From contig JAUXIB010000003.1 in the NCBI GenBank assembly GCA_030621225.1, positions 1-41,873 of the forward strand: DNA of 41,873 bases. Reading direction: 5' to 3'. Below the pieces are notes generated by a model. The model worked only from the letters and a program-made list of their open reading frames with translations. It did not search any database and was not told where the DNA came from. Origin of the DNA: a candidate division FCPU426 bacterium (GTDB lineage: Bacteria; Oederibacteriota; JAUXIB01). Shown here piece by piece: positions 3,974 to 38,250 of the stretch. Each line of letters starts with the position of its first letter. Within the stretch, counting starts at the first letter, position 1. The position numbers and the translations under genes are program-made.

Positions 3974-4092
3974 GGCGCGTATCTTGTAGCTTCCGCCGTC
4001 GTTAACACTGCCATAAATATTACTTTTATGGTTAGGAGCGTCAACTATGGCGGACAAGCGTAGCTAGTAGTTCGTTGGCATGACCGCGAGCC

Positions 4093-4139
4093 AGTAGTGG
4101 CGTCCCTCTGTGGGCGCCACCAGCCGAAGGCTGGTTAAC
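4093..4139 (+). repeat. 47-nt double-hairpin element, copy 2 (upstream of ribH)
   Basis: Matches 1376-1422; both mismatches lie in the first hairpin loop. Confidence 0.9.
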
Positions 4140-8299: not shown

Positions 8300-8462
8300 C
8301 GGAGTGCGGGAGTAACGGTGTAACGGAGTAACAGGAACCCTAAGACTCAGGCCCCGAGATAGTTATTAGTCGTTGGTCGTTCGTCGTTAGTATTTGGTTG
8401 AAGTTAAGAAGTAAAAAGCAGTGAGATTGAGATACGAGCTGCGAGCTACGAGTTGCGAGTTC
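8300..8462. repeat. Mixed 7/8-mer array (GGAGTAAC, TRGTCGT, GAGCTRC)
   Basis: ggagtaac ggtgtaac ggagtaac; tagtcgt tggtcgt tcgtcgt; gagctgc gagctac gagttgc. Confidence 0.75.
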
Positions 8463-27532: not shown

Positions 27533-28573
27533 ATGAAGAGATCACTGATAAAAGGAATAATGAAACACCGCCTGGGACGAGTAGGCTTCACCGTCCTGCT
27601 TGTGTTATACACTGCGGTACTGTTCGCCGGATTCCTTTCCCCCTATCATCCGGCCGAGCACCATCGCCGCGCGGCGTATCATCCGCCAACGCCGATTAAA
27701 TTCAGCCTGGCGCAGGGATTTTACGTTAATGGATATGAACTTACTGATGTAGCTTTCAAGCGGTATAAGTTGCTCCAGCAACAGCGGTACAAGGTAAAAT
27801 TTTTAGCCAAAGGGTTTTCGTATCGTATTTTTGGGGTCATTCCCGCGGAGCGTCACTTTATCCAGACGGCGCAGGGGGGGCATCTCTTTCTGTTCGGTAG
27901 CGATCATTTTGGCCGGGATGTTTTTGCGCGCATACTATACGGCGGCCGGGTTTCTCTGAGCATCGGACTGATCGGTGTGGCTATTTCTTTTTCGCTGGGC
28001 TTGTTTGTCGGCGGCATATCCGGGTATTTCGGCGGTCGGGTGGATGATATTTTGATGCGGCTGTGTGAGGTGATCATGAGTGTGCCCGGCTTTTATCTGC
28101 TGCTGGCTTTGCGTGCCGTCATCCCGTTGCAGCTCTCTTCCACGCAAACTTACCTGGCGCTGGTCGGGTTGCTTTCCTTTATCGGCTGGCCGGGGTTGGC
28201 GCGGGTGATCCGTGGACAGGTTTTGTCTATTCGTGAACGGGACTTTGTCGCGGCGGCGAAGGCGATCGGCGCCTCGCCCGTGCGGATCATCGTTAGGCAT
28301 ATAATTCCTAATACTTTTTCTTATACGATCGTTGCCGCTACTCTTTCCATTCCTGGTTATATCCTGGGAGAGTCCGGGCTTTCCTTTCTGGGGCTGGGTA
28401 TCCAGGAACCGGACGCCAGTTGGGGTAATATGCTTTCCGCGGCGATGAGTATCCACGCGCTCTCCTCTTTTTTCTGGATACTTGTGCCGGGATTGTTCAT
28501 CTTCATTGCGATTATGAGTTTTAATCTGCTGGGGGACGCGATAAGGGATGTTACGGATCCGAGAATTAACTAG
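27533..28573 (+). CDS. Peptide ABC transporter permease (OppC/DppC-like)
   Basis: FGSDHFGRDVFARILYGGRVSL, DFVAAAKAIGAS..RHIIPN, ESGLSFLGLG. Confidence 0.95.
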   Translation: MKRSLIKGIMKHRLGRVGFTVLLVLYTAVLFAGFLSPYHPAEHHRRAAYHPPTPIKFSLAQGFYVNGYELTDVAFKRYKLLQQQRYKVKFLAKGFSYRIFGVIPAERHFIQTAQGGHLFLFGSDHFGRDVFARILYGGRVSLSIGLIGVAISFSLGLFVGGISGYFGGRVDDILMRLCEVIMSVPGFYLLLALRAVIPLQLSSTQTYLALVGLLSFIGWPGLARVIRGQVLSIRERDFVAAAKAIGASPVRIIVRHIIPNTFSYTIVAATLSIPGYILGESGLSFLGLGIQEPDASWGNMLSAAMSIHALSSFFWILVPGLFIFIAIMSFNLLGDAIRDVTDPRIN

Positions 28574-28665
28574 TGGACAGGGGCCAGGGGTCGGTGGTCA
28601 GTGGGCAAGAATATACCAGCGACAGGTGACACGGGATGCGTGATGAGTATTGAGTGAAAGGAAAT

Positions 28666-29688
28666 ATGAAGAAGACAGCGCCAGCCAAGAATAAGAAGCG
28701 ACGCAATACGCAATACCCAATACGCAATACCAAACCATTGCTTGAGGTGGAGGGACTCACCGTCCGTTTTTCCACCACCAGTGGCACGTTGACTGCTGTT
28801 GACGACATAAGCTACAGCATCCGGCGCGGTGAGTTCGTTGCTGTTTTAGGGGAGAGTGGTTGCGGCAAGAGCGTATCGGCGCTATCACTGCTTCGGCTGG
28901 TGCCGTCTCCGGGGCGGATCACCGCGCGGGGGATCAGGTTCGCGGCGAAGGACTTGCTGGAGTTGAGCGAGGATAAAATGCGCCGGGTGCGCGGCAAAGA
29001 GATCGCTATGATCTTTCAGGAGCCGATGACCTCACTTAATCCTTTGTTCAGGGTGGGAGACCAGATCGGTGAGGCCATCAAAATGCACCACCGATTAGCG
29101 AAGGGACAGCTGTATGCTCGATTGATGAAATCTTTAAGCGGCATGGGTCTAGCGGACCCGGCGAGAGTTGCTGAGAGTTACCCACATGAATTATCCGGTG
29201 GTATGCGTCAACGGGCGATGATCGCTATGGCTCTTTCTTGCCGCCCGAAGCTGTTGATCGCTGATGAGCCAACAACGGCGCTTGATGTTACCATTCAGGC
29301 GCAGATATTGAAGTTACTGACCGGATTACAGAAGGATAAGAACCTGGCCGTGCTGTTGATAACGCACGATGTCGGAGTGGTCTACGAGACTGCCGAGCGG
29401 GTGATGGTCATGTATACAGGCCGTGTAGTGGAGGACGCTCCGGTACGACAGCTCTTTGATAAGCCTTTGCACCCTTATACTATCGGTCTGTTGGCATCGG
29501 TTCCGGATATTAGAAAGGCGGGCAGGGAATTGCCAACGATAAAAGGTCAAGTGCCTAATATGCTCCAGCTATCTTCAGGTTGTCACTTTAGAGATCGTTG
29601 TCCCCGTGCTATCAAGAGGTGCGCGAAAGAGCGGCCTGAACTTCGCACTGTGGGTGACGGCCGACGGGTGGCGTGTATTAGGGTTTAA
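28666..29688 (+). CDS. Peptide ABC transporter ATP-binding protein (OppD/DppD-like)
   Basis: GESGCGKS, LSGGMRQR, IADEPTTALD, HPYT, C-terminal Cys motif. ATG 28666 follows AAGGA. Confidence 0.95.
   Translation: MKKTAPAKNKKRRNTQYPIRNTKPLLEVEGLTVRFSTTSGTLTAVDDISYSIRRGEFVAVLGESGCGKSVSALSLLRLVPSPGRITARGIRFAAKDLLELSEDKMRRVRGKEIAMIFQEPMTSLNPLFRVGDQIGEAIKMHHRLAKGQLYARLMKSLSGMGLADPARVAESYPHELSGGMRQRAMIAMALSCRPKLLIADEPTTALDVTIQAQILKLLTGLQKDKNLAVLLITHDVGVVYETAERVMVMYTGRVVEDAPVRQLFDKPLHPYTIGLLASVPDIRKAGRELPTIKGQVPNMLQLSSGCHFRDRCPRAIKRCAKERPELRTVGDGRRVACIRV
28701..28731 (+). repeat. ACGCAAT heptamer array inside oppD-like N-terminus
   Basis: acgcaat acgcaat acccaat acgcaat acc; the same unit is intergenic at about 38278. 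Confidence 0.85.
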
Positions 29689-29748
29689 TCGAGTCGAATG
29701 TCCAATGTCAAACGTCTGAACGTCCGATGTCTCTTCCGGACTCGATAC

Positions 29749-29917
29749 TAGTCGTTAGTATTTGGTATCTGGTATTTGGTTGGTCCTCCGGACACTCCAA
29801 CATTAAACAGAATATGGTCGGCCTTCGGACACTCCAATATACAAAAAAATAGTTGGCCGTCCCGGCACTCCGATATTAAACAGAATTTGGTCGCCGACTA
29901 AACACTAAATACCAACG
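29749..29917. repeat. Inverted-arm element with three 34-39 nt internal tandem units
   Basis: Arms are related to 36626-36700 and 38137-38250. Units at 29781, 29815 and 29854 share TGGYC..CGG(A)CACTCC. Confidence 0.8.
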
Positions 29918-29998
29918 AGCTACGAACTACGAACTACTAGCTACGAGTAAGATGGCATACCACATATAGTCTTTCCTCAAGTCTTATAATAATACCGC

Positions 29999-30028
29999 TT
30001 GACCCATCTACATATAGTATGCTATAAT
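29999..30028 (+). promoter_or_regulatory. Sigma70-like promoter for nrdR
   Basis: TTGACC-18 nt-TATAAT with extended -10 (TGc). Confidence 0.7.
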
Positions 30029-30088
30029 ACGATTATTCAATATCCTGTGCGACGATAGATAATAGACGAATAACGAAAGACGAAAAGA

Positions 30089-30541
30089 ATGCGTTGCCCA
30101 TACTGTGGACATGATGACGATAAGGTAGTTGATTCTCGCTCCAGCAAGGACGGTGCCGCGGTAAGGCGGCGGCGTGAGTGCTTGAAGTGCGAGAAGCGTT
30201 TTACTACCTATGAGCAGGTTGAGGAGTTGATGCCGGTGGTGGTGAAAAAGGACAGTCGGCGTGAGCCTTATGACCGGTCGAAGGTAATGGGGGGCTTGCA
30301 GGTAGCCTGCCGTAAACTGCCTGTGTCTCAGAAGGTACTGGAAGATGTTTGCGATAAGATCGAGAAATTTGTGATGGATCGTTCCGATAAGGAAGTGAAT
30401 AGCTCTGAGATCGGCGAGATGGTTATTCGTTTGTTGCACAAGGTTGATGAAGTTGCCTATATCAGGTTTGCTTCCGTTTACCGTGAGTTTAAAGACAGAA
30501 AAGCCTTTATTAATGAGTTATCCCGCTTCATGAAGAAGTAA
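30089..30541 (+). CDS. nrdR: Transcriptional repressor NrdR
   Basis: MRCPYC zinc ribbon, VVDSR, RRRRECLKCEKRFTTYE, ATP-cone, AYIRFASVYREF. Confidence 0.97.
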   Translation: MRCPYCGHDDDKVVDSRSSKDGAAVRRRRECLKCEKRFTTYEQVEELMPVVVKKDSRREPYDRSKVMGGLQVACRKLPVSQKVLEDVCDKIEKFVMDRSDKEVNSSEIGEMVIRLLHKVDEVAYIRFASVYREFKDRKAFINELSRFMKK

Positions 30542-30573
30542 CCCGCCGACTTAGTTAGCAGCCAAGTCATAAG

Positions 30574-30708
30574 AGCCACAGAGGTCACAGAGTTCACAGA
30601 GAAACGACTTTTCCTGGATAACACCAACAAAACACTCCATCTTTTTTGTTGTCTCCGTGGTACGCACAGAAAAAAATCTTTTGTCTTTCCTCTGTGATCT
30701 CTGTGGCT
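30574..30708. repeat. 9-mer (CACAGAGRT) inverted-repeat element with no gene inside
   Basis: AGCCACAGAGGTCACAGAG (30574-30592) versus CTCTGTGATCTCTGTGGCT (30690-30708); 18/19 complementary. Confidence 0.85.
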
Positions 30709-30833
30709 AATTAGCCGTTCCCCGTATCCTGTATACTGATTTGTTTATAACTCATAATTCCTGACTCATACCCTCTATTCCTATAGAATAACCGGAAAAA
30801 CTGCTTTAATATTTCAATTTCGTCCAAAATTCC

Positions 30834-30862
30834 TTGACACTTTAATAGCAAAATGCCACAAT
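30834..30862 (+). promoter_or_regulatory. Sigma70-like promoter for citrate synthase
   Basis: TTGACA-17 nt-CACAAT with TGc extension. Confidence 0.6.
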
Positions 30863-30995
30863 GACCACCTTTGAAGTACGCTATATGGGGGGGTTAGCCG
30901 CTGTTTTTGATTAGCGGAGTAGAACCCGTCACGGTACTTCTTCCCCCTGCGAATAGCTTGTAGTCAACTGCATTCCTTAAAAAAGGAGAGAGATC

Positions 30996-32273
30996 ATGGG
31001 AAAACTCCAGGAGAAACTGGCCGGCCAGATTCCCGTTTGGCGGGAAGAAGCAAAAGCGCTGGTTAAAGAGCACGGCGATAAGGTGATTGATCAGGTCAAG
31101 GTTTCACAGGTTTTCGGCGGGATTCGCGGGGTGAAGTGTCTTATCTGTGATACCTCTGAAGTCGCTTTGGACAGTGGTCTTATCATTCGCGGTAAGCCGC
31201 TCAAAGAGCTGACCGATAAAATTCCCGAGGAGATACTCTGGCTGCTGATGACCGGCGAGATGCCCAGCGAGGAGGAGACGGAAGATCTGCGCAAGGATCT
31301 GGCCGAGCGGATGGAGGTTCCTGATTACGTTTGGAAAGTATTGGAGGCGATGCCGGAGGATTCCCATCCGATGTGTATGCTGAATACAGGTATCCTGGTA
31401 ATGGAGCGGGAAGCTAAGTTCCGCCAGGCGTATAACAAGGGTGTGAAGAAACCGGATTATTGGGTGTCTACTCTGGAAGACGCTCTTGATATTATCGCTA
31501 GGACTGCTACCCTGGCTGCCGGCGTCTATCGCATGCGTTACAACAAGGGCGAGCGGATCTCTACCGATAAGAGCAAGGACTACGGCACCAATTATGCCGC
31601 TATGTTGGGGGTGGATGATCCCTCTGGGGATTTCGCTAAGCTGATGCAGCTTTACCTAACGCTGCATTCCGACCACGAGAGTGGCAATGTCAGCGCTAAT
31701 GCGGCTCAGGTTGTTAATTCCGCGCTCTCCGATCTTTACTATGCTGTTTCCGCCGGCTTTAACGGCTTGGCCGGGCCATTGCACGGTTTGGCTAATCAGG
31801 AGTGTCTTGCTTGGGTGATAGAGGTACACAAGAAGTTCAAGGGCGTGCCTTCGGATGAGGATTTGACAAAGTTTGCCTGGGAGACGTTGAATTCCGGCAA
31901 GGTCATTCCCGGTTACGGGCACGCTGTGTTACGCGTCACCGACCCGCGTTTTGACGCTTTCCTGGCCTTTGGTAAGGAGCATTGTCCGGATGACGAGATC
32001 TTTAATATCGTGGCAAAGATCTTCAATATCGTGCCCGGTGTTCTAAAGGAACATGGCAAGGCCAAGAGTCCCTGGCCGAATGTCGATGCCGGTAGCGGTT
32101 CTCTGCTCAATCATTACGGGCTTCAGGAGTTTGAGTATTACACCGTACTGTTCAGTGTTTCGCGTACGCTCGGCGTCTGTTCCCAGGCGGTGGTGGCACG
32201 TGCCCTGGGTGCGCCGATCATCCGGCCGAAGTCAGTGACCACGGGCTGGGTCAAGGAGCAGGTGAGCAAGTAA
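30996..32273 (+). CDS. gltA: Citrate (Si)-synthase, eukaryote-like type
   Basis: DHESGNVSA, GLAGPLHGLANQE, VIPGYGHAVLRVTDPRF, PWPNVDAGSG; catalytic His/His/Asp present. GGAG SD. Confidence 0.93.
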   Translation: MGKLQEKLAGQIPVWREEAKALVKEHGDKVIDQVKVSQVFGGIRGVKCLICDTSEVALDSGLIIRGKPLKELTDKIPEEILWLLMTGEMPSEEETEDLRKDLAERMEVPDYVWKVLEAMPEDSHPMCMLNTGILVMEREAKFRQAYNKGVKKPDYWVSTLEDALDIIARTATLAAGVYRMRYNKGERISTDKSKDYGTNYAAMLGVDDPSGDFAKLMQLYLTLHSDHESGNVSANAAQVVNSALSDLYYAVSAGFNGLAGPLHGLANQECLAWVIEVHKKFKGVPSDEDLTKFAWETLNSGKVIPGYGHAVLRVTDPRFDAFLAFGKEHCPDDEIFNIVAKIFNIVPGVLKEHGKAKSPWPNVDAGSGSLLNHYGLQEFEYYTVLFSVSRTLGVCSQAVVARALGAPIIRPKSVTTGWVKEQVSK

Positions 32274-32309
32274 CCACGGGTCGCTGACTAACAAGGTCTC
32301 TAGACGCAC

Positions 32310-32344
32310 GTAGGGGCGCAGCATGCTGCGCCCCTACTTTTTTT
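32310..32344. terminator. Perfect 28-bp GTAG-class palindrome plus T7; likely terminator/REP between convergent gltA and eno
   Basis: GTAGGGGCGCAGCATGCTGCGCCCCTAC followed by TTTTTTT. Confidence 0.85.
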
Positions 32345-32385
32345 CAGTCGTCTTGTTGTCCGCTAACGATCAGCGGTGTCGCGGG

Positions 32386-33684
<1,299 letters not shown>

Positions 33685-33825
33685 TTAGGTTTCAAAGATG
33701 GTTAGATTAGCTTTTTATTCGGGCAAAGTCAAACAGAATTTTTGTGGTGGATTTTTACGATAAAATCTCTTGACAGAGGGGCGGGAGAGTATGCTATACA
33801 TATGGTAGAGATTGGAGGGCTTGGA

Positions 33826-34224
33826 ATGAAAAAAATCATTGTTTGGGTGTGTTTTATAGGGACTTTGTCTTTTGTTCTTGGTCAAAGCACAATGATCGTT
33901 GATTTTCTTGAGTCGAAGTTAATTGACCAAGAGTCTGAGTCAACTGACGCCCCCAAGCTCCTCTACCAAATGGGGAAATATTGTTATTCTCTTTCGAACC
34001 TTGAGCGTGCGGCAAAATGTTTTGGGCGGGTATTGGAAGATCACTCGGAGGTCATCCCCTGGGCACCGGCCAGTCTTTTCATGATCGGGAAGATCCACGA
34101 GAAGAAGGGAGCGATACTTCAGGCTAGGTTGACCTTCGAACGTATGGAGGAGGATTACCCATACGAGGAAGAATATTTGGAGAAAGCCGCGGCTAAATTG
34201 TCAGAACTAGAAAGGGCTTATTGA
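33826..34224 (+). CDS. Small exported/membrane-anchored TPR protein
   Basis: N-terminal hydrophobic segment and TPR-like helices (LYQMGKY, SLFMIGKIHEK). GGAGG SD before ATG 33826. Confidence 0.6.
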   Translation: MKKIIVWVCFIGTLSFVLGQSTMIVDFLESKLIDQESESTDAPKLLYQMGKYCYSLSNLERAAKCFGRVLEDHSEVIPWAPASLFMIGKIHEKKGAILQARLTFERMEEDYPYEEEYLEKAAAKLSELERAY

Positions 34225-35237
34225 TGTCTAAAAAATACTGGAGATGCTTGATAGTTCTCGTGTTTTTTGCGCTGGTGTTTTTTCCCGGTATTTCTTTGAA
34301 TGCGCAAGATGATGATATCGTGATCATAGACGATGAGGAGGAAGCGGCGGCGGGAGTGGAAAGCGGTGATTTAATCATAGAAGACGGTGAGCAAGAAGCG
34401 GGCGGGGAAGACGAGTACTATTATGAAGCAGCGGGAGGGGAGGAGTGGGATGAAGGGGATGAAGGAGAATTTGAGGTTAGCGAATTAGCGGAGACAGAAG
34501 AGCCGCTGGTGTATGGCGAGGAGTTATACCGCCCGGATTTTAAATTATCCCTTTCGCGATTAGAGCGTACAGGGCGTGTTCTTAATGAACGGAAGACGCC
34601 GCGGTATGACGGGGTTATCAAGCGGGCCTATGATTCTCGGGAGATGATAAGTACGGGTGATAAGATAATAATAACTTTGCGTAACGCGAGTGAAGTGGGA
34701 ATAGGGGAGGAGTTCACCATATTTCGTAAAGGTAAGTTAGTGGCTCATCCGCACAGTGGAAAACCTATCGGCTATTATATTAAGAATGTTGGCTACCTTT
34801 GTGTGATCGAGAAAAAAGAAGGTAGGATCCTGGCGGTGGTTAAGCAGGTTTATGACACGGTATATATCGGGAATAAGTTGAGGAGTCGGGAAGTGATTAA
34901 ACGGCAGCAGGCGGAAAGCAATAGGCCCCCCAGGATGCCCGAAGCCGGGGAAGTGCGCGGGTGTGTGGTGTGGACGGAGAATTCTTACGCGAGTAACGGG
35001 CATATCATTTGCCTGGACAGGGGGGCGGATGCCAACCTGGTGCCGGGGTTGATCGTAGAAATATATAATGTGCCCAAGGGAGTTGATATAACTAAAAAAG
35101 ATAATGGAGTTCGTTTTGCCATTGGCGAGATAGAGCTCATACGGGTTGACCGAAATACTTCGATGGCCGTAATTGTGAAGGCCAAAGATGGGATAAAGGT
35201 GGGGCAGCAGGCGGTATTGACCATAAGTGTAGAATAG
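34224..35237 (+). CDS. Exported protein with TsaP/FlgT-C-like C-terminal region and acidic N-terminal tract
   Basis: Signal peptide; D/E-rich residues about 28-95; GDKIII..GEEFTIFRKGKLVAHPHSGKPIG..VG pattern seen in dprA-linked TsaP-like proteins. TGATG overlap with the upstream gene. Confidence 0.55.
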   Translation: MSKKYWRCLIVLVFFALVFFPGISLNAQDDDIVIIDDEEEAAAGVESGDLIIEDGEQEAGGEDEYYYEAAGGEEWDEGDEGEFEVSELAETEEPLVYGEELYRPDFKLSLSRLERTGRVLNERKTPRYDGVIKRAYDSREMISTGDKIIITLRNASEVGIGEEFTIFRKGKLVAHPHSGKPIGYYIKNVGYLCVIEKKEGRILAVVKQVYDTVYIGNKLRSREVIKRQQAESNRPPRMPEAGEVRGCVVWTENSYASNGHIICLDRGADANLVPGLIVEIYNVPKGVDITKKDNGVRFAIGEIELIRVDRNTSMAVIVKAKDGIKVGQQAVLTISVE

Positions 35238-35263
35238 GTCATGAGAACTGAGCTGTGTAAATC

Positions 35264-35286
35264 ACCGGCCCCCGGGGCGGTTTTTT
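35264..35286 (+). terminator. Putative intrinsic terminator
   Basis: ACC(G)GCCC-ccg-GGGCGGT followed by a T-run. Confidence 0.55.
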
Positions 35287-35377
35287 GTTTCCTCTTTTTG
35301 GCCGGGCTCTCCCGTGTTAGTTTATGAAACAGCGATAGTAGCGATTTGGTTGTGTGACGCTGAATGGGTATAGCTTT

Positions 35378-36562
35378 ATGAACGAACAAGCGGCGGAATA
35401 TTTCAAAGTAGGAACTCGTTTGTTAAGCGAGGGTGATCTGGATGGAGCACAGGAAAACCTGGTGCGTGTTCTGGAGATAGAGCCGGACTTGCCGGAAGCC
35501 TTGTTGGGGTTGGGTAGTGTTTATTGCCAACAGGGGGAGACAAAGGCGGCGATAACTAAATACAAGCGGTACTTGGAGCTGGAGCCGGATAGCGCGGCAA
35601 TTCATTCGGAGCTGGGCGAGCTTTACGATCAGGAAGACAAAGCGGAGTTGGCGCGCGGCATGTATTTACGGGCGATAGAGTTGGACGGTAAGAACGCTAA
35701 AATACACGAGCGGTTGGGGGATTTTTATTACGGTCGGTTTGAGCATGAGGAAGCCTTGAAGAGTTATAAGCAGGCCTTGAAATTGGACGCCGATAATGCC
35801 GAAATCGCTTTTAAGATAGCTGACATTTATGAGTCGAAAGGGGACACTGACGAAGCGATTATTGCTTACGAGAAGACGGTGGAATTAAACCCTAATCATG
35901 CAATGGTTCACGTAATGCTGGGTAATCTTTATAAGAAGATAGGGTTGCCGGATGAAGCGGAACGTATGTATGAGAAGGCTTTGAAGATAAGTCCCAAGGA
36001 AGGCGAGGCGTTACTGGCCCTGGGACTGGCTAAATTAGACAAGGGGGATTATAAGCAGGCGGTAAAATCACTGCAACGCTGTCTGAAAGGGGACGAGGAT
36101 AACGTTGGCGCGCTTGATGCATTGGCATATTCTTATGTCTGTCTCTCCCGCAAGGATGACGCTTTGATGTCTTACAAGCGGATACTTGTCCTGCAGCCGG
36201 AAGGGGAGCTGTATAATCGAGCGATGGCTTTCGTTTATCAGAGCGAGGGGGAATCGGCGAAAGCCGTGGATGAATATAAACAGGCGATCGAGGCGCAGCC
36301 TGAGAGTCGTCAGAATCGCTGGCTATTGGCGGACCTTTATTATCGTTTAGAGGATTATACGAAAGCGGTGAAGGAGTTTAAGACTCTACTCAAAGGAACA
36401 AGTGATGATCTCAGTATACTTTGCCGTTTAGGTGAATCCTATATGAAGCTTGGCGATGCTCCGGCTGCCATCAAGAGCTGGGATCAATCATTGAAATTAG
36501 AGCCGAATAACGATATCCTTCGGCTTAAGGTGAAGCGGTTGAAAGAAAGCCTGGAGGGGTGA
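35378..36562 (+). CDS. Tetratricopeptide-repeat protein (about 10-11 TPRs)
   Basis: Regular 34-aa repeats (e.g. ALLGLGSVY..QG...A...Y.R.LE.EP). Start uncertain (GTG 35354 or ATG 35378). Confidence 0.9.
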   Translation: MNEQAAEYFKVGTRLLSEGDLDGAQENLVRVLEIEPDLPEALLGLGSVYCQQGETKAAITKYKRYLELEPDSAAIHSELGELYDQEDKAELARGMYLRAIELDGKNAKIHERLGDFYYGRFEHEEALKSYKQALKLDADNAEIAFKIADIYESKGDTDEAIIAYEKTVELNPNHAMVHVMLGNLYKKIGLPDEAERMYEKALKISPKEGEALLALGLAKLDKGDYKQAVKSLQRCLKGDEDNVGALDALAYSYVCLSRKDDALMSYKRILVLQPEGELYNRAMAFVYQSEGESAKAVDEYKQAIEAQPESRQNRWLLADLYYRLEDYTKAVKEFKTLLKGTSDDLSILCRLGESYMKLGDAPAAIKSWDQSLKLEPNNDILRLKVKRLKESLEG

Positions 36563-36625
36563 AGAATTGTGAGTTATGAATTATGAGTTATGAATAAGGC
36601 GGTACACAGGATACGGGATATGAGT

Positions 36626-36700
36626 TAGTCGTTAGTCGTTGGTATTTAGTATTTAGTCGTCAACCAAATACCAATGACTAAATACTAACGACCAAAACAG
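36626..36700. repeat. Inverted-arm element, empty form
   Basis: TAGTCGTTAGTCGTTGGTATTTAGTATTTAGTCGTCAACCAAA-ta-CCAATGACTAAATACTAACGACCAAAACAG. Confidence 0.85.
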
Positions 36701-36756
36701 CAAATAGGAAGTGGCAAACCAGATACTAGATACGAGATACCAGATACGCTTGTCAC

Positions 36757-36806
36757 GCCGTAGCCCCCGAGCTTGTTTGCCAACAGGCAAACGCGGGGGC
36801 GAAGGT
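36757..36806. repeat. Nested REP-like hairpin
   Basis: GCCCCCG..GTTTGCC-aaca-GGCAAAC..CGGGGGC followed by GAAGG. Confidence 0.6.
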
Positions 36807-36809
36807 GGA

Positions 36810-36963
36810 TGTCGTCGTGGTGAAAAGGACGTTAGCCGTTACGGTGCGCGTTGGTGTTTGAAAAGAAAGAACGTCGTGTCGTCGTGGTGAAAAGGACGTT
36901 AGCCGTTACGGTGCGCGTTGGTGTTTGAAAAGAAAGAACATCGTGTCGTCGTGGTGAAAAAGG
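36810..36963 (+). repeat. 67-bp tandem repeat, 2.3 copies
   Basis: Units start at 36810, 36877 and 36944. Units 1 and 2 differ at one position. Confidence 0.92.
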
Positions 36964-37003
36964 TAGTTCATTGGTAGTTGGGATAGATGGGGGTTTGAAA
37001 TCT

Positions 37004-38113
37004 GTGGACAAAAAATATGATTTTGAGGAACGGCTGGCTCGGATAGCGCTTAATTTCCTGCCGCAGATAGGCGGTTTGCGCTTGCAGGCTCTGCTCAAGA
37101 GATATCGCCGGGCGAAGAGCGTGCTCGAGGCGCGGCAAAGTGAGCTGTCCCGGGTGCCGGGGATCGGCGTCAAGGGGGCGGCTGGTATCAAGGCACTGAG
37201 TTTGCAGGACGCTGAGGTGGAATATGAAAAGGCCGCTGGCCGGGGGATAGAGATAGTTTGTCTGGGGGAGAGCGGCTATCCTGAGTCTTTGGCTTGCATT
37301 CCGCAACCACCGGCGGTGCTTTATATTTGGGGGTGTCGGCAAACGTTAGCGGAACCCATGGTTGGTATTGTCGGTTGTCGGCGACCAACGTCCTATGGGA
37401 TCAGAACGGCCGGGGTGATGAGCCGCGGACTGGTTCGGGCCGGGTTTGTCGTTGTTAGTGGTCTGGCGCGCGGTATAGATAGTGAAGCGCATCGGGCCGC
37501 TCTGGCAGCCGGGGGTAGAACGGTGGCTGCACTCGCGGCGGGGTTTGACCATATTTATCCGCCCGAGAACAAACAGCTTTTGCGGAAGATGGTCGACGGC
37601 GGGGTGGCGGTGAGTGAGTTCCCATTGCGGATGAAACCCCTGAAACAGAATTTCCCCTTCCGTAACAGAATTATCAGCGGACTCAGTCGGGGGGTGGTGG
37701 TCGTGCAGGGGCAGCGGGGGAGTGGCGCGTTGATCACTGCGAATTTTGCGCTGGAGCAGGGGCGGGAAGTGTTCGCGGTGCCGGGAGAAGTAGGGATAAA
37801 GGAATCGGAGGGTCCGCACACGCTTATTCGCCAGGGAGCACGATTAGTGCGGGACGTAACAGATATCCTGAAGGACTTGGAATATGAGTCGGAACGATTG
37901 AGGCCCCAGCGGGGACCGGATCTCAAGGACTTGACAGCTGTGGAGGAAAAGGTGCTACGCGCCATCGGCAAGGCAACGCTGCATCCGGATGAAGTAATAG
38001 TCAAGACCGAGATCTCAGCCGGAGACCTGATGCAAGTGTTGCTCGGGTTGGAGTTGAAAGGTTTCGTGCGCCGCACGGCAGGGGAACGTTATTTTTTAAG
38101 CGGCAAGCTATAG
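37004..38113 (+). CDS. dprA: DNA-processing protein DprA (Smf)
   Basis: YPESLACI..PPAVLY, GIVGCRRPTSYG, VVSGLARGIDSEAH, VSEFP, FPFRNRIISGLS, SGALITA, C-terminal winged helix. GTG 37004 preferred. Confidence 0.96.
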   Translation: MDKKYDFEERLARIALNFLPQIGGLRLQALLKRYRRAKSVLEARQSELSRVPGIGVKGAAGIKALSLQDAEVEYEKAAGRGIEIVCLGESGYPESLACIPQPPAVLYIWGCRQTLAEPMVGIVGCRRPTSYGIRTAGVMSRGLVRAGFVVVSGLARGIDSEAHRAALAAGGRTVAALAAGFDHIYPPENKQLLRKMVDGGVAVSEFPLRMKPLKQNFPFRNRIISGLSRGVVVVQGQRGSGALITANFALEQGREVFAVPGEVGIKESEGPHTLIRQGARLVRDVTDILKDLEYESERLRPQRGPDLKDLTAVEEKVLRAIGKATLHPDEVIVKTEISAGDLMQVLLGLELKGFVRRTAGERYFLSGKL

Positions 38114-38136
38114 GCAGGGGTTGGGGGTCAGTAAGC

Positions 38137-38250
38137 TAGTCGTTGGTCGTTGGTATTTAGTATTTAGTTGGCAACCAAACGCCCCCTACGGGGACTAACT
38201 GATATTAAATAGGATAGCGGCCAATGACCAAATACTGACGACCAAAACAG
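38137..38250. repeat. Inverted-arm element with 41-nt central insert
   Basis: Arms differ from 36626-36700 at 3 and 2 positions. The centre carries CCCC-ctac-GGGG and GATATTAAATAGGAT. Confidence 0.85.

Follow-up and report, generated by a model that had tools for sequence, protein, structure and literature searches.

Heptamer-armed hairpins with variable internal modules in the intergenic DNA of a candidate division FCPU426 bacterium

The window analysed here is the whole 41,873-nucleotide stretch of contig JAUXIB010000003.1 (C110 in our numbering of contigs) from an uncultivated candidate division FCPU426 bacterium (assembly GCA_030621225.1). Three of its intergenic spacers, one between the genes for an ATP-binding cassette (ABC) ATPase and NrdR and two on either side of dprA, hold copies of a palindromic composite repeat in which arms of tandem heptamers enclose a loop and a variable number of small modules, referred to as modules A and B. 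We report that the same arms and modules recur throughout the host genome, a metagenome-assembled genome (MAG) of 2.6 Mb in 266 contigs with 52% GC, and we compare it with the MAG CBDVCL01 (G001, the sister genome), which belongs to another genus of the same family and is the sole relative in the collections searched. The composites and modules in the window are as follows.

29749..29917, + strand: composite enclosing three units of module A; left arm GTCGTTA GTATTTG GTATCTG GTATTTG, units A1-A2-A1, loop GTCGCCGAC, right arm TAAACAC TAAATAC CAACGAG
29779..29890, + strand: the three module A units, starting at approximately 29779, 29816 and 29852, with covariance-model matches at 29779-29817 and 29852-29890
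36626..36700, + strand: the 'empty' composite; left arm GTCGTTA GTCGTTG GTATTTA GTATTTA, loop GTCGTCAAC, right arm CAAATAC CAATGAC TAAATAC TAACGAC
38137..38250, + strand: composite with one module B, of the same subfamily as the copy at 36626
38181..38219, + strand: module B (GCCCCCTACGGGGACTAACTGATATTAAATAGGATAGCGG), made up of a stem-loop (CCCC-TAC-GGGG) and a conserved tail, inserted after CAAACGC and before CAATGAC of the right arm

The 'empty' copy and the module B copy differ by 3 mismatches over 43 nt in their left arms (36626-36668 vs 38137-38179) and by 2 over 30 nt in their right arms (36671-36700 vs 38221-38250; 93% identity), and the nearest paralogue of the 'empty' copy, C78:6845, shows 2 mismatches over 43 nt. 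Both fold tightly (-27 kcal/mol with z -4.7, and -47.8 kcal/mol with z -4.6, respectively), with 0 of 200 shuffles being equally stable in either case; in the 'empty' hairpin the arms pair slipped by one heptamer, and an asymmetric tail, CCAAAACAGCAAATAGGAAGTGGC, follows its right arm and reaches approximately 36715. The fold of the triple composite is less convincing (z -2.4), and 29886-29918, when reverse-complemented, agrees with the left arm at 30 of 33 positions. Its tandem-repeat stretch (29777-29893) comprises 3.2 units of 37 nt, of which the first and the third are of subtype A1 (tail ATATTAAACAGAAT) and the middle one is of subtype A2 (tail ATATACAAAAAAAT), with the stems GTCC/GGAC, GCC/GAC-type and GCCG/CGGC in that order. 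The word GATATTAAACAGAAT is present at 29872 and the word GATATTAAATAGGAT at 38201, with GATATTAAA common to the two. These arms, tandem units and shared words, together with a solo arm fragment described below, had been pointed out in an initial annotation of the window, and all of them are present at the coordinates it gave. An identical and independent Logan contig, retrieved through an exact-protein look-up, covers module B's right half along with the entire spacer to the next gene base for base and ends inside module B; the same look-up returned no record for the TPR protein encoded ahead of dprA.

The arms are tandem runs of the heptamers GTCGTTR, GTATTTR and GTATCTR, the right arm being the complementary series. 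With an arm run defined as at least three consecutive heptamers of this class and at most one mismatch per unit, the genome scan returned 443 runs, compared with approximately 10 in a shuffled genome (5 on one strand), and among neighbouring runs 86 pairs face inwards and 2 outwards; a stricter definition gave approximately 206 arms and 42 close pairs. A period of 7 accounts for 5.3% of the intergenic DNA under a strict mask, which misses alternating arm heptamers, and each other period between 5 and 11 accounts for at most 1%. The repeat load is uneven, with 34% of the intergenic bases in 14-mers present at least four times vs 2.5% of the coding bases, and by the same measure the three window spacers reach 50%, 82% and 51%. 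Outside the arms, more shared modules (GTAAGCY, CTTTTCACCACGACGAC and GGKGGTCA runs) continue up to the neighbouring gene.

The 86 inward-facing pairs, together with aligned representatives, follow one composite grammar: left arm, loop GTYNGCRAC, zero to four modules and right arm. Approximately 20 of the 86 interiors are empty, and the rest hold module A in one, two, three or four copies, module B, A+B, A+C or other recurrent modules, such that the shared lexicon consists of the arms, the loop and the modules A1, A2, B, C and D. Modules A (37-38 nt) and B (approximately 39 nt) are related, each with a 4-bp stem closed by a 3-nt loop and, after it, a conserved ATATTAAA tail: module A reads GTCC-TTC-GGAC, then ACTCCAATATTAAACAGAAT (conserved tail ACTCCAATATTAAAYAGAAT), and module B reads CCCC-TAC-GGGG, then ACTAACTGATATTAAATAGGAT (conserved tail ACTAACYGATATTAAA). 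The core pattern of module A matched 55 times and the reversed control 0 times. When the A2 subtype (tail ATATATAAAAAG) is included there are 68 units in 52 arrays (42 of one unit, 5 of two, 4 of three and 1 of four), the sizes of arrays at contig ends being lower bounds; the covariance model gave 61 module A matches, and module B is present in 14 copies in the host genome. Contigs C12, C149, C159 and C184 terminate within module A arrays, and the assembly is thus fragmented at these repeats.

Among 51 distinct module A units 96.6% of the stem cells are paired, a level reached by 0 of 500 shuffles, and pairing falls to 18-48% when the 3' partner is slid. All four stem pairs show compensatory changes, 34 cells being altered on both sides, and the stem variants include GTCC/GGAC, GTCG/CGAC, GCCG/CGGC, GCCC/GGGC and GCAC/GTGC. 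The consensus, GGTTG-stem-ACTCC..., has no GTAG, and CTAC appears in some loop variants only. Within every array the units run head-to-tail with no alternating orientation; module A carries no terminal inverted repeats and lies in no longer gene-bearing element, the flanks shared between copies extending over at most 220 nt. Rfam gave no match at the gathering threshold over the full length of the window or, within 29650-30000, at E <= 5. Readings of module A as an NrdR box or a CsrA site were dropped: the motif is not palindromic, its GGA is not conserved and it occurs at approximately 50 loci with unrelated flanking genes.

Paralogous copies of the composite differ by exact insertions or deletions of modules, bounded by direct repeats of 4-9 nt. 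In the case of module B, the empty copies (36650 and C78:6872) and the B-bearing copies (C214:9466, 38161 and C161) differ by a single 39-nt gap between CAACCAAAT and RCCAATGAC, which places the insertion point after the first right-arm heptamer (CAAATRC^CARTGAC), approximately 16 nt to the right of the dyad. In the case of module A, C92:21522 and C215:1746 share 45 nt to the left and approximately 35 nt to the right without a mismatch, and differ by a reverse-complemented module A that replaces one heptamer. The junction words of 8-9 nt on both sides of a module are CRAC|CAAAT for A and CCAAATAC for B; CRAC|CAAAT flanks each hairpin-borne A unit on both sides and is found as a single copy in the empty state, and a GGYYG word borders every A array on both sides in all contexts. 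The polarity of module A with respect to the dyad is fixed: in 13 of 13 hairpin-borne A arrays the stem-loop end lies at the arm and the AT-rich tail at the loop.

Dispersal between loci and local duplication both operate. Neighbouring units of the window array are 58-68% identical to one another vs 95%, 87% and 95% to their best matches elsewhere (C36, C141 and C159), and A1-A2 pairing is seen also at C25, C42 and C102; since the window units are closer to other loci and the array is an A1-A2-A1 mix, it was assembled from dispersed units. At C158, C159 and C230 adjacent units are identical or nearly so, which argues for local duplication.

The modules are also independent of the particular arms. 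Roughly one in two A arrays is located in a GTATYTR hairpin, and the others recur in different frames, several of them palindromic (CCCCTCCCC...GGGGAGGGG; GTGGCTCTGT...GATAGCC; ...CACCACGACGAC). In a flank-complementarity test the two flanks of A arrays were more complementary to one another than those of random spacer sites, 36% of the arrays reaching <=-25 kcal/mol vs 11% of the random sites (p = 3e-4). The sister genome has 7-8 copies of module A and 15 of module B with nearly the same sequence, and there they lie within other heptamer arrays (GAAAGTT, GCGGATT, CGGAATT and GGTATTG). The covariance model of module A matched 0 of 97 further Omnitrophota genomes, the exact module pattern was found among 185,579 species representatives in the sister genome only, and scans of the JGI metagenome collection with the cores of modules A and B returned nothing. 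Judged from these sequence searches the repeat system is restricted to one bacterial family.

The initial annotation had taken the three sites for one palindromic element in three states, i.e. empty, with a 41-nt cargo and with a triple-unit cargo, and for something similar to a MITE (miniature inverted-repeat transposable element) or a bacterial interspersed mosaic element (BIME). Chance is excluded as a source of the similarity (443 vs approximately 10 runs, 86:2 pairs, 0/200 fold shuffles, pattern matches 55 vs 0 when reversed), and further copies with variable centres, whose absence would by the annotation's own test have refuted it, do exist, the same arms having varied interiors at many loci. 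The likeness to BIMEs holds in that palindromic units and linker motifs form mosaics in variable combinations at many intergenic loci, and the proposed precise gain and loss agrees with the exact indels of modules B and A between paralogues. The three sites are not a single element in three states: at least two distinct, related modules plus others are involved, and module A is present also in other frames and in the sister genus. As to insertion at the centre, A adjoins the loop, and B sits one heptamer into the right arm and not at the dyad; the 41-nt cargo of the copy at 38137 is a 39-nt module placed behind the first right-arm heptamer. The triple array is not a product of slippage, as had been argued, each unit having a closer relative at another locus; to call this direct evidence of recombination was to overstate it, as units have been dispersed between loci but the data are silent on how.

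We consider it probable that the three loci belong to a non-coding system of mosaic repeats spread over the whole genome and comparable to BIME and BOX elements, which would act at the DNA level, be selfish or neutral, and have its interior changed by copying between loci together with local exchange. In one process, single units or A1-A2 pairs would be copied from other loci into the arm/loop junction, and for this we infer one of two agents: an enzyme acting in trans on single-stranded, hairpin-forming DNA, for which seven genes for Y1 proteins resembling the transposases associated with repetitive extragenic palindromes (REPs), known as RAYTs, are candidates, or gene conversion primed by the homologous arms of approximately 40 nt. 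In the other, units would be added or deleted, down to the 'empty' state, when the short direct repeats on either side undergo slipped-strand or unequal exchange. The orientation of the repeats relative to genes is neutral and gives no sign of an RNA function.

Several points weigh against this interpretation. The genome is a fragmented MAG with genes called by a crude longest-open-reading-frame method, and gain and loss are read from paralogous loci. The direct repeats that flank the modules coincide with the arm heptamer and are indistinguishable from target duplications or from plain placement between repeat units. With respect to an enzyme, neither the seven Y1/RAYT genes of the host nor the three of the sister genome have A, B or arms beside them in loci covering up to 1.5 kb on each side (less at contig ends), and TnpB is absent. 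Among hairpins of the strict family with called genes on both sides 34 lie between co-directional, 3 between convergent and 0 between divergent genes (baseline 14%), divergent spacers are avoided (0/39), and 20 of the 34 hairpins begin within approximately 15-18 nt of the upstream stop codon. In the sister genome, furthermore, the ABC-ATPase/nrdR spacer has, right behind the stop codon, a hairpin of GAAAGTT heptamers, and next to it the conserved nrdR promoter.

The last of these observations belong to the strongest of the alternatives, if still an unlikely one, in which the composites are functional RNA or DNA hairpins at gene 3' ends (terminators, REP-like stabilisers of mRNA or nuclease sites), the hairpin is selected while its sequence turns over, and the modules are tolerated loop insertions. 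Placement at stop codons and avoidance of divergent spacers give a hint of selection for a role at the 3' ends of genes, and the best argument for such a role is that a hairpin is found at the same place in both genera, in orthologous ABC-ATPase/nrdR spacers, with different heptamers. On the other hand, no U-tract follows the hairpins, CCAAAACAG being found there instead; the more stable fold is on the sense strand in 30 cases and on the antisense strand in 30 (p = 0.79); module A lies on the same strand as the flanking genes in 11 cases and on the opposite strand in 12, i.e. its orientation is random; there is no Rfam match in the window; and the dprA spacers of the sister genome are without any such hairpin. 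An intrinsic terminator, considered as a candidate in its own right, was rejected on the missing U-tract and the lack of strand asymmetry in fold energy. A bolder proposal, which we put forward tentatively and regard as doubtful, is that A and B are undescribed minimal mobile units (a 4-bp hairpin plus a tail of approximately 25 nt, with no terminal inverted repeats) that would home in fixed polarity to the heptamer/loop boundary. Their 3' end (ATWTG) would recreate the target, so that new copies land behind residents and head-to-tail arrays result; the hairpins would be safe-harbour landing pads or by-products, and an enzyme, RAYT-like Y1 or other, would act in trans on single-stranded DNA.

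A single element that is remodelled solely by local slippage or unequal crossing-over and receives nothing from other loci is improbable. It would account for the near-identical adjacent units at C158, C159 and C230 and for the short direct repeats that bound every unit, but not for the low identity among the window units compared with their matches elsewhere, the mixture of A1 and A2, the difference between A and B, or the occurrence of the same modules in frames that are unrelated and in a second genus. A MITE of the classical kind, mobilised by a DDE transposase, with the arms as terminal inverted repeats and with target-site duplications, is at least as improbable. Inverted arms, high copy number, a tight fold and intergenic location are what such an element would show, but the number and order of the arm units vary, A has no terminal inverted repeats, and no arm pair spaced 300-4000 nt apart encloses a transposase-like gene, nor was an insertion sequence with matching arms or terminal repeats found, so that no longer element with the same arms surrounds a transposase gene. 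Because the flanks are themselves made of shared modules there are no definable outer ends and no target duplication, and the MITE part of the initial annotation is given up. Finally, the two direct copies around dprA, at 93% identity, could be seen as recombination sites of a mobile or integron-like cassette; this we find hardly credible, since in the sister genome the gene order TPR-dprA-hypothetical-topA is kept (DprA 73% identical) with dprA spacers of 64 and 80 nt that lack the elements, and similar hairpins follow many unrelated genes. The earlier description of dprA as lying between direct repeats is accurate as to the two flanking copies, but dprA is not their cargo, as follows from the conserved synteny. 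An integron gene cassette with attC sites was discarded on the same finding.

Mosaic repeats of the BIME and BOX types have been studied in a few cultivated pathogens, and to our knowledge their mode of spread is still unclear. In the present uncultivated lineage a third of the intergenic DNA is built from a small lexicon of modules, and the nesting is unusually clear, with species- or locus-specific heptamer arms on the outside and a constrained module, conserved across genera, on the inside. Fast arms vs conserved modules, in combination with a fixed insertion point and polarity, make the system a tractable case for studying how modules are copied, by a hairpin-directed enzyme or by arm-primed gene conversion. 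There is also a practical side to this: such repeats break assemblies and can create false extensions of open reading frames and false 'cassette' appearances, as around dprA.

The nearest architectural analogue is BOX of Streptococcus pneumoniae and S. suis, in which paired terminal modules surround internal ones in varying number, written boxA-boxB(n)-boxC (Croucher et al. 2011, PMC3049150). Both are intergenic composites with paired ends and zero to several tandem internal modules of approximately 40 nt that fold on their own (here n = 0, 1, 2, 3 and 4); in S. suis the internal module likewise occurs in different terminal frames and further module types exist, and no dedicated transposase is known for BOX (PMC3049150). 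The comparison is one of architecture only, and the hosts belong to different phyla; moreover, the ends are here heptamer runs variable in number and order, in contrast to the fixed boxA and boxC, and the internal modules are of two related types, each with a mini-hairpin that covaries. REPs, BIMEs and REPINs with their RAYT (TnpA-REP) transposases (Nunvar et al. 2010, PMC2817692; Bertels and Rainey 2011, PMC3116915; Ton-Hoang et al. 2012, PMC3333891) are similar in being short intergenic palindromes with covarying stems that form mosaics with linkers, vary in tandem number by locus, and occur in genomes that encode RAYT-like Y1 genes. Modules A and B differ from them by the lack of a 5' GTAG, by direct rather than alternating tandem order, by a stem of only 4 bp followed by a long conserved AT-rich tail, and in that no RAYT gene is flanked. 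Copy-number variation of BIME-2 and RAYT-catalysed recombination of its linkers (PMC3333891) offer by analogy a plausible enzymology for the system described here.

With regard to the arms, intergenic heptamers are known from Nostoc and Xanthomonas as the short tandemly repeated repetitive (STRR) sequences and G-rich heptamers (Rehm et al. 2015, PMC4692102) and as the TAACTGA repeats of Beggiatoaceae and cyanobacteria (MacGregor 2015, PMC4679880). They share with the arms short runs of 2-6 copies of 7-nt units that are mostly intergenic, and a period of 7 is strongly over-represented in the present genome as well; here, however, many heptamers are used, which face each other as hairpin arms, host nested modules, lack a G-rich composition and have no preference for sites upstream of start codons. 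Insertion at a fixed point in an extragenic palindrome has a precedent in the REP-targeting insertion sequences IS1397, ISKpn1, IS621 and ISPpu9/10 (Tobes and Pareja 2006, PMC1525189), although these are full insertion sequences that encode a transposase, in contrast to the non-coding units of 37-39 nt in our case.

The other features of the window that relate to the system are the gene between the two directly oriented copies, the sequence that separates it from the second copy and the solo arm fragment.

36971..38113, + strand: dprA (PF02481 with 238 bits, and PF17782), a regular chromosomal gene outside the repeat, followed by the genes for a 149-aa protein and TopA; lies between two directly oriented copies of the composite
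38114..38136, + strand: G-rich heptamer-type module (GGCAGGGGTTGGGGGTCA), then GTAAGCT; the same arrangement precedes the arm at C39, C124, C165, C190 and C33
8367..8398, + strand: solo left-arm run, GTCGTTG GTCGTTC GTCGTTA GTATTTG; left-arm match at 8367-8395, 86%

The solo run has no local partner arm and no significant fold (z +0.6). The recurrence of a G-rich module and GTAAGCT ahead of arms shows that the mosaic extends outward to the stop codon. G-rich heptamer runs of the GGKGGTCA type, in the window at 38114-38136 and 28572-28604, lie right after stop codons and at several loci precede GTAAGCY and an arm, a placement that suggests a preferred order of modules within spacers. Directly upstream of dprA (36810-36960) there is a 67-nt tandem repeat with 2.3 copies at 98-99% identity, and its GTCGTCGTGGTGAAAAGG part is the reverse complement of CTTTTCACCACGACGAC, a module that precedes GTAAGCY and an arm at at least 10 other loci.

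In the nrdR spacer, the promoter region (cTTGACC...tacatatagtatgcTATAAT; approximately 30000-30035 in the window and 2356-2390 in the sister locus L038) is conserved between the genera, in contrast to the part of the spacer filled with repeats; a possible autoregulatory NrdR box is the ACATATAGTATG stretch. Upstream, in both genera, a heptamer array of four CGCAATA/CCCAATA units (28701-28730 in the window and L038 1247-1280) lies inside the open 5' end of the reading frame for an oligopeptide ABC ATPase, and there are two alternatives, a true start codon located downstream of the array or translation of the repeat into an N-terminal extension. In the sister genome a module B lies in the spacer upstream of this gene, and the host genome is without it.

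Among the seven Y1 (IS200/RAYT-like) genes of the host genome, compared with three in the sister genome, the one on C248 scores 90.7 bits on NF047646, above the NCBIfam cut-off for REP-associated transposases. This RAYT gene (C248:23741-24211) is flanked by a canonical REP family with 5' GTAG (AGTAGTGGCGTCCCTCYGYGGGCGCCACCAGCCGAAGGCTGGT), three copies lying upstream in direct orientation and one downstream in inverted orientation. The same GTAG-type REP is found in the window at 1368-1422 and 4085-4139, where the initial annotation had seen a double hairpin before ribE/ribH; these hairpins are probably REPs and not riboflavin regulators. Other RAYT-like genes have flanks of their own: GTGACAG-type direct repeats at C142:7959-8303, a CCACACCTCTGGGGTGCGCACCCCAGAGGTGTGG hairpin at C151:23940-24176, and inverted ends of approximately 28 nt (GGGTCAGAGCTTGACATGTGACA) at C29:5544-5879. 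The RAYT-like genes on C118 (C118:450-788), C142 and C151 have in common a conserved 5' leader that contains CCCATTTTTGTCA.

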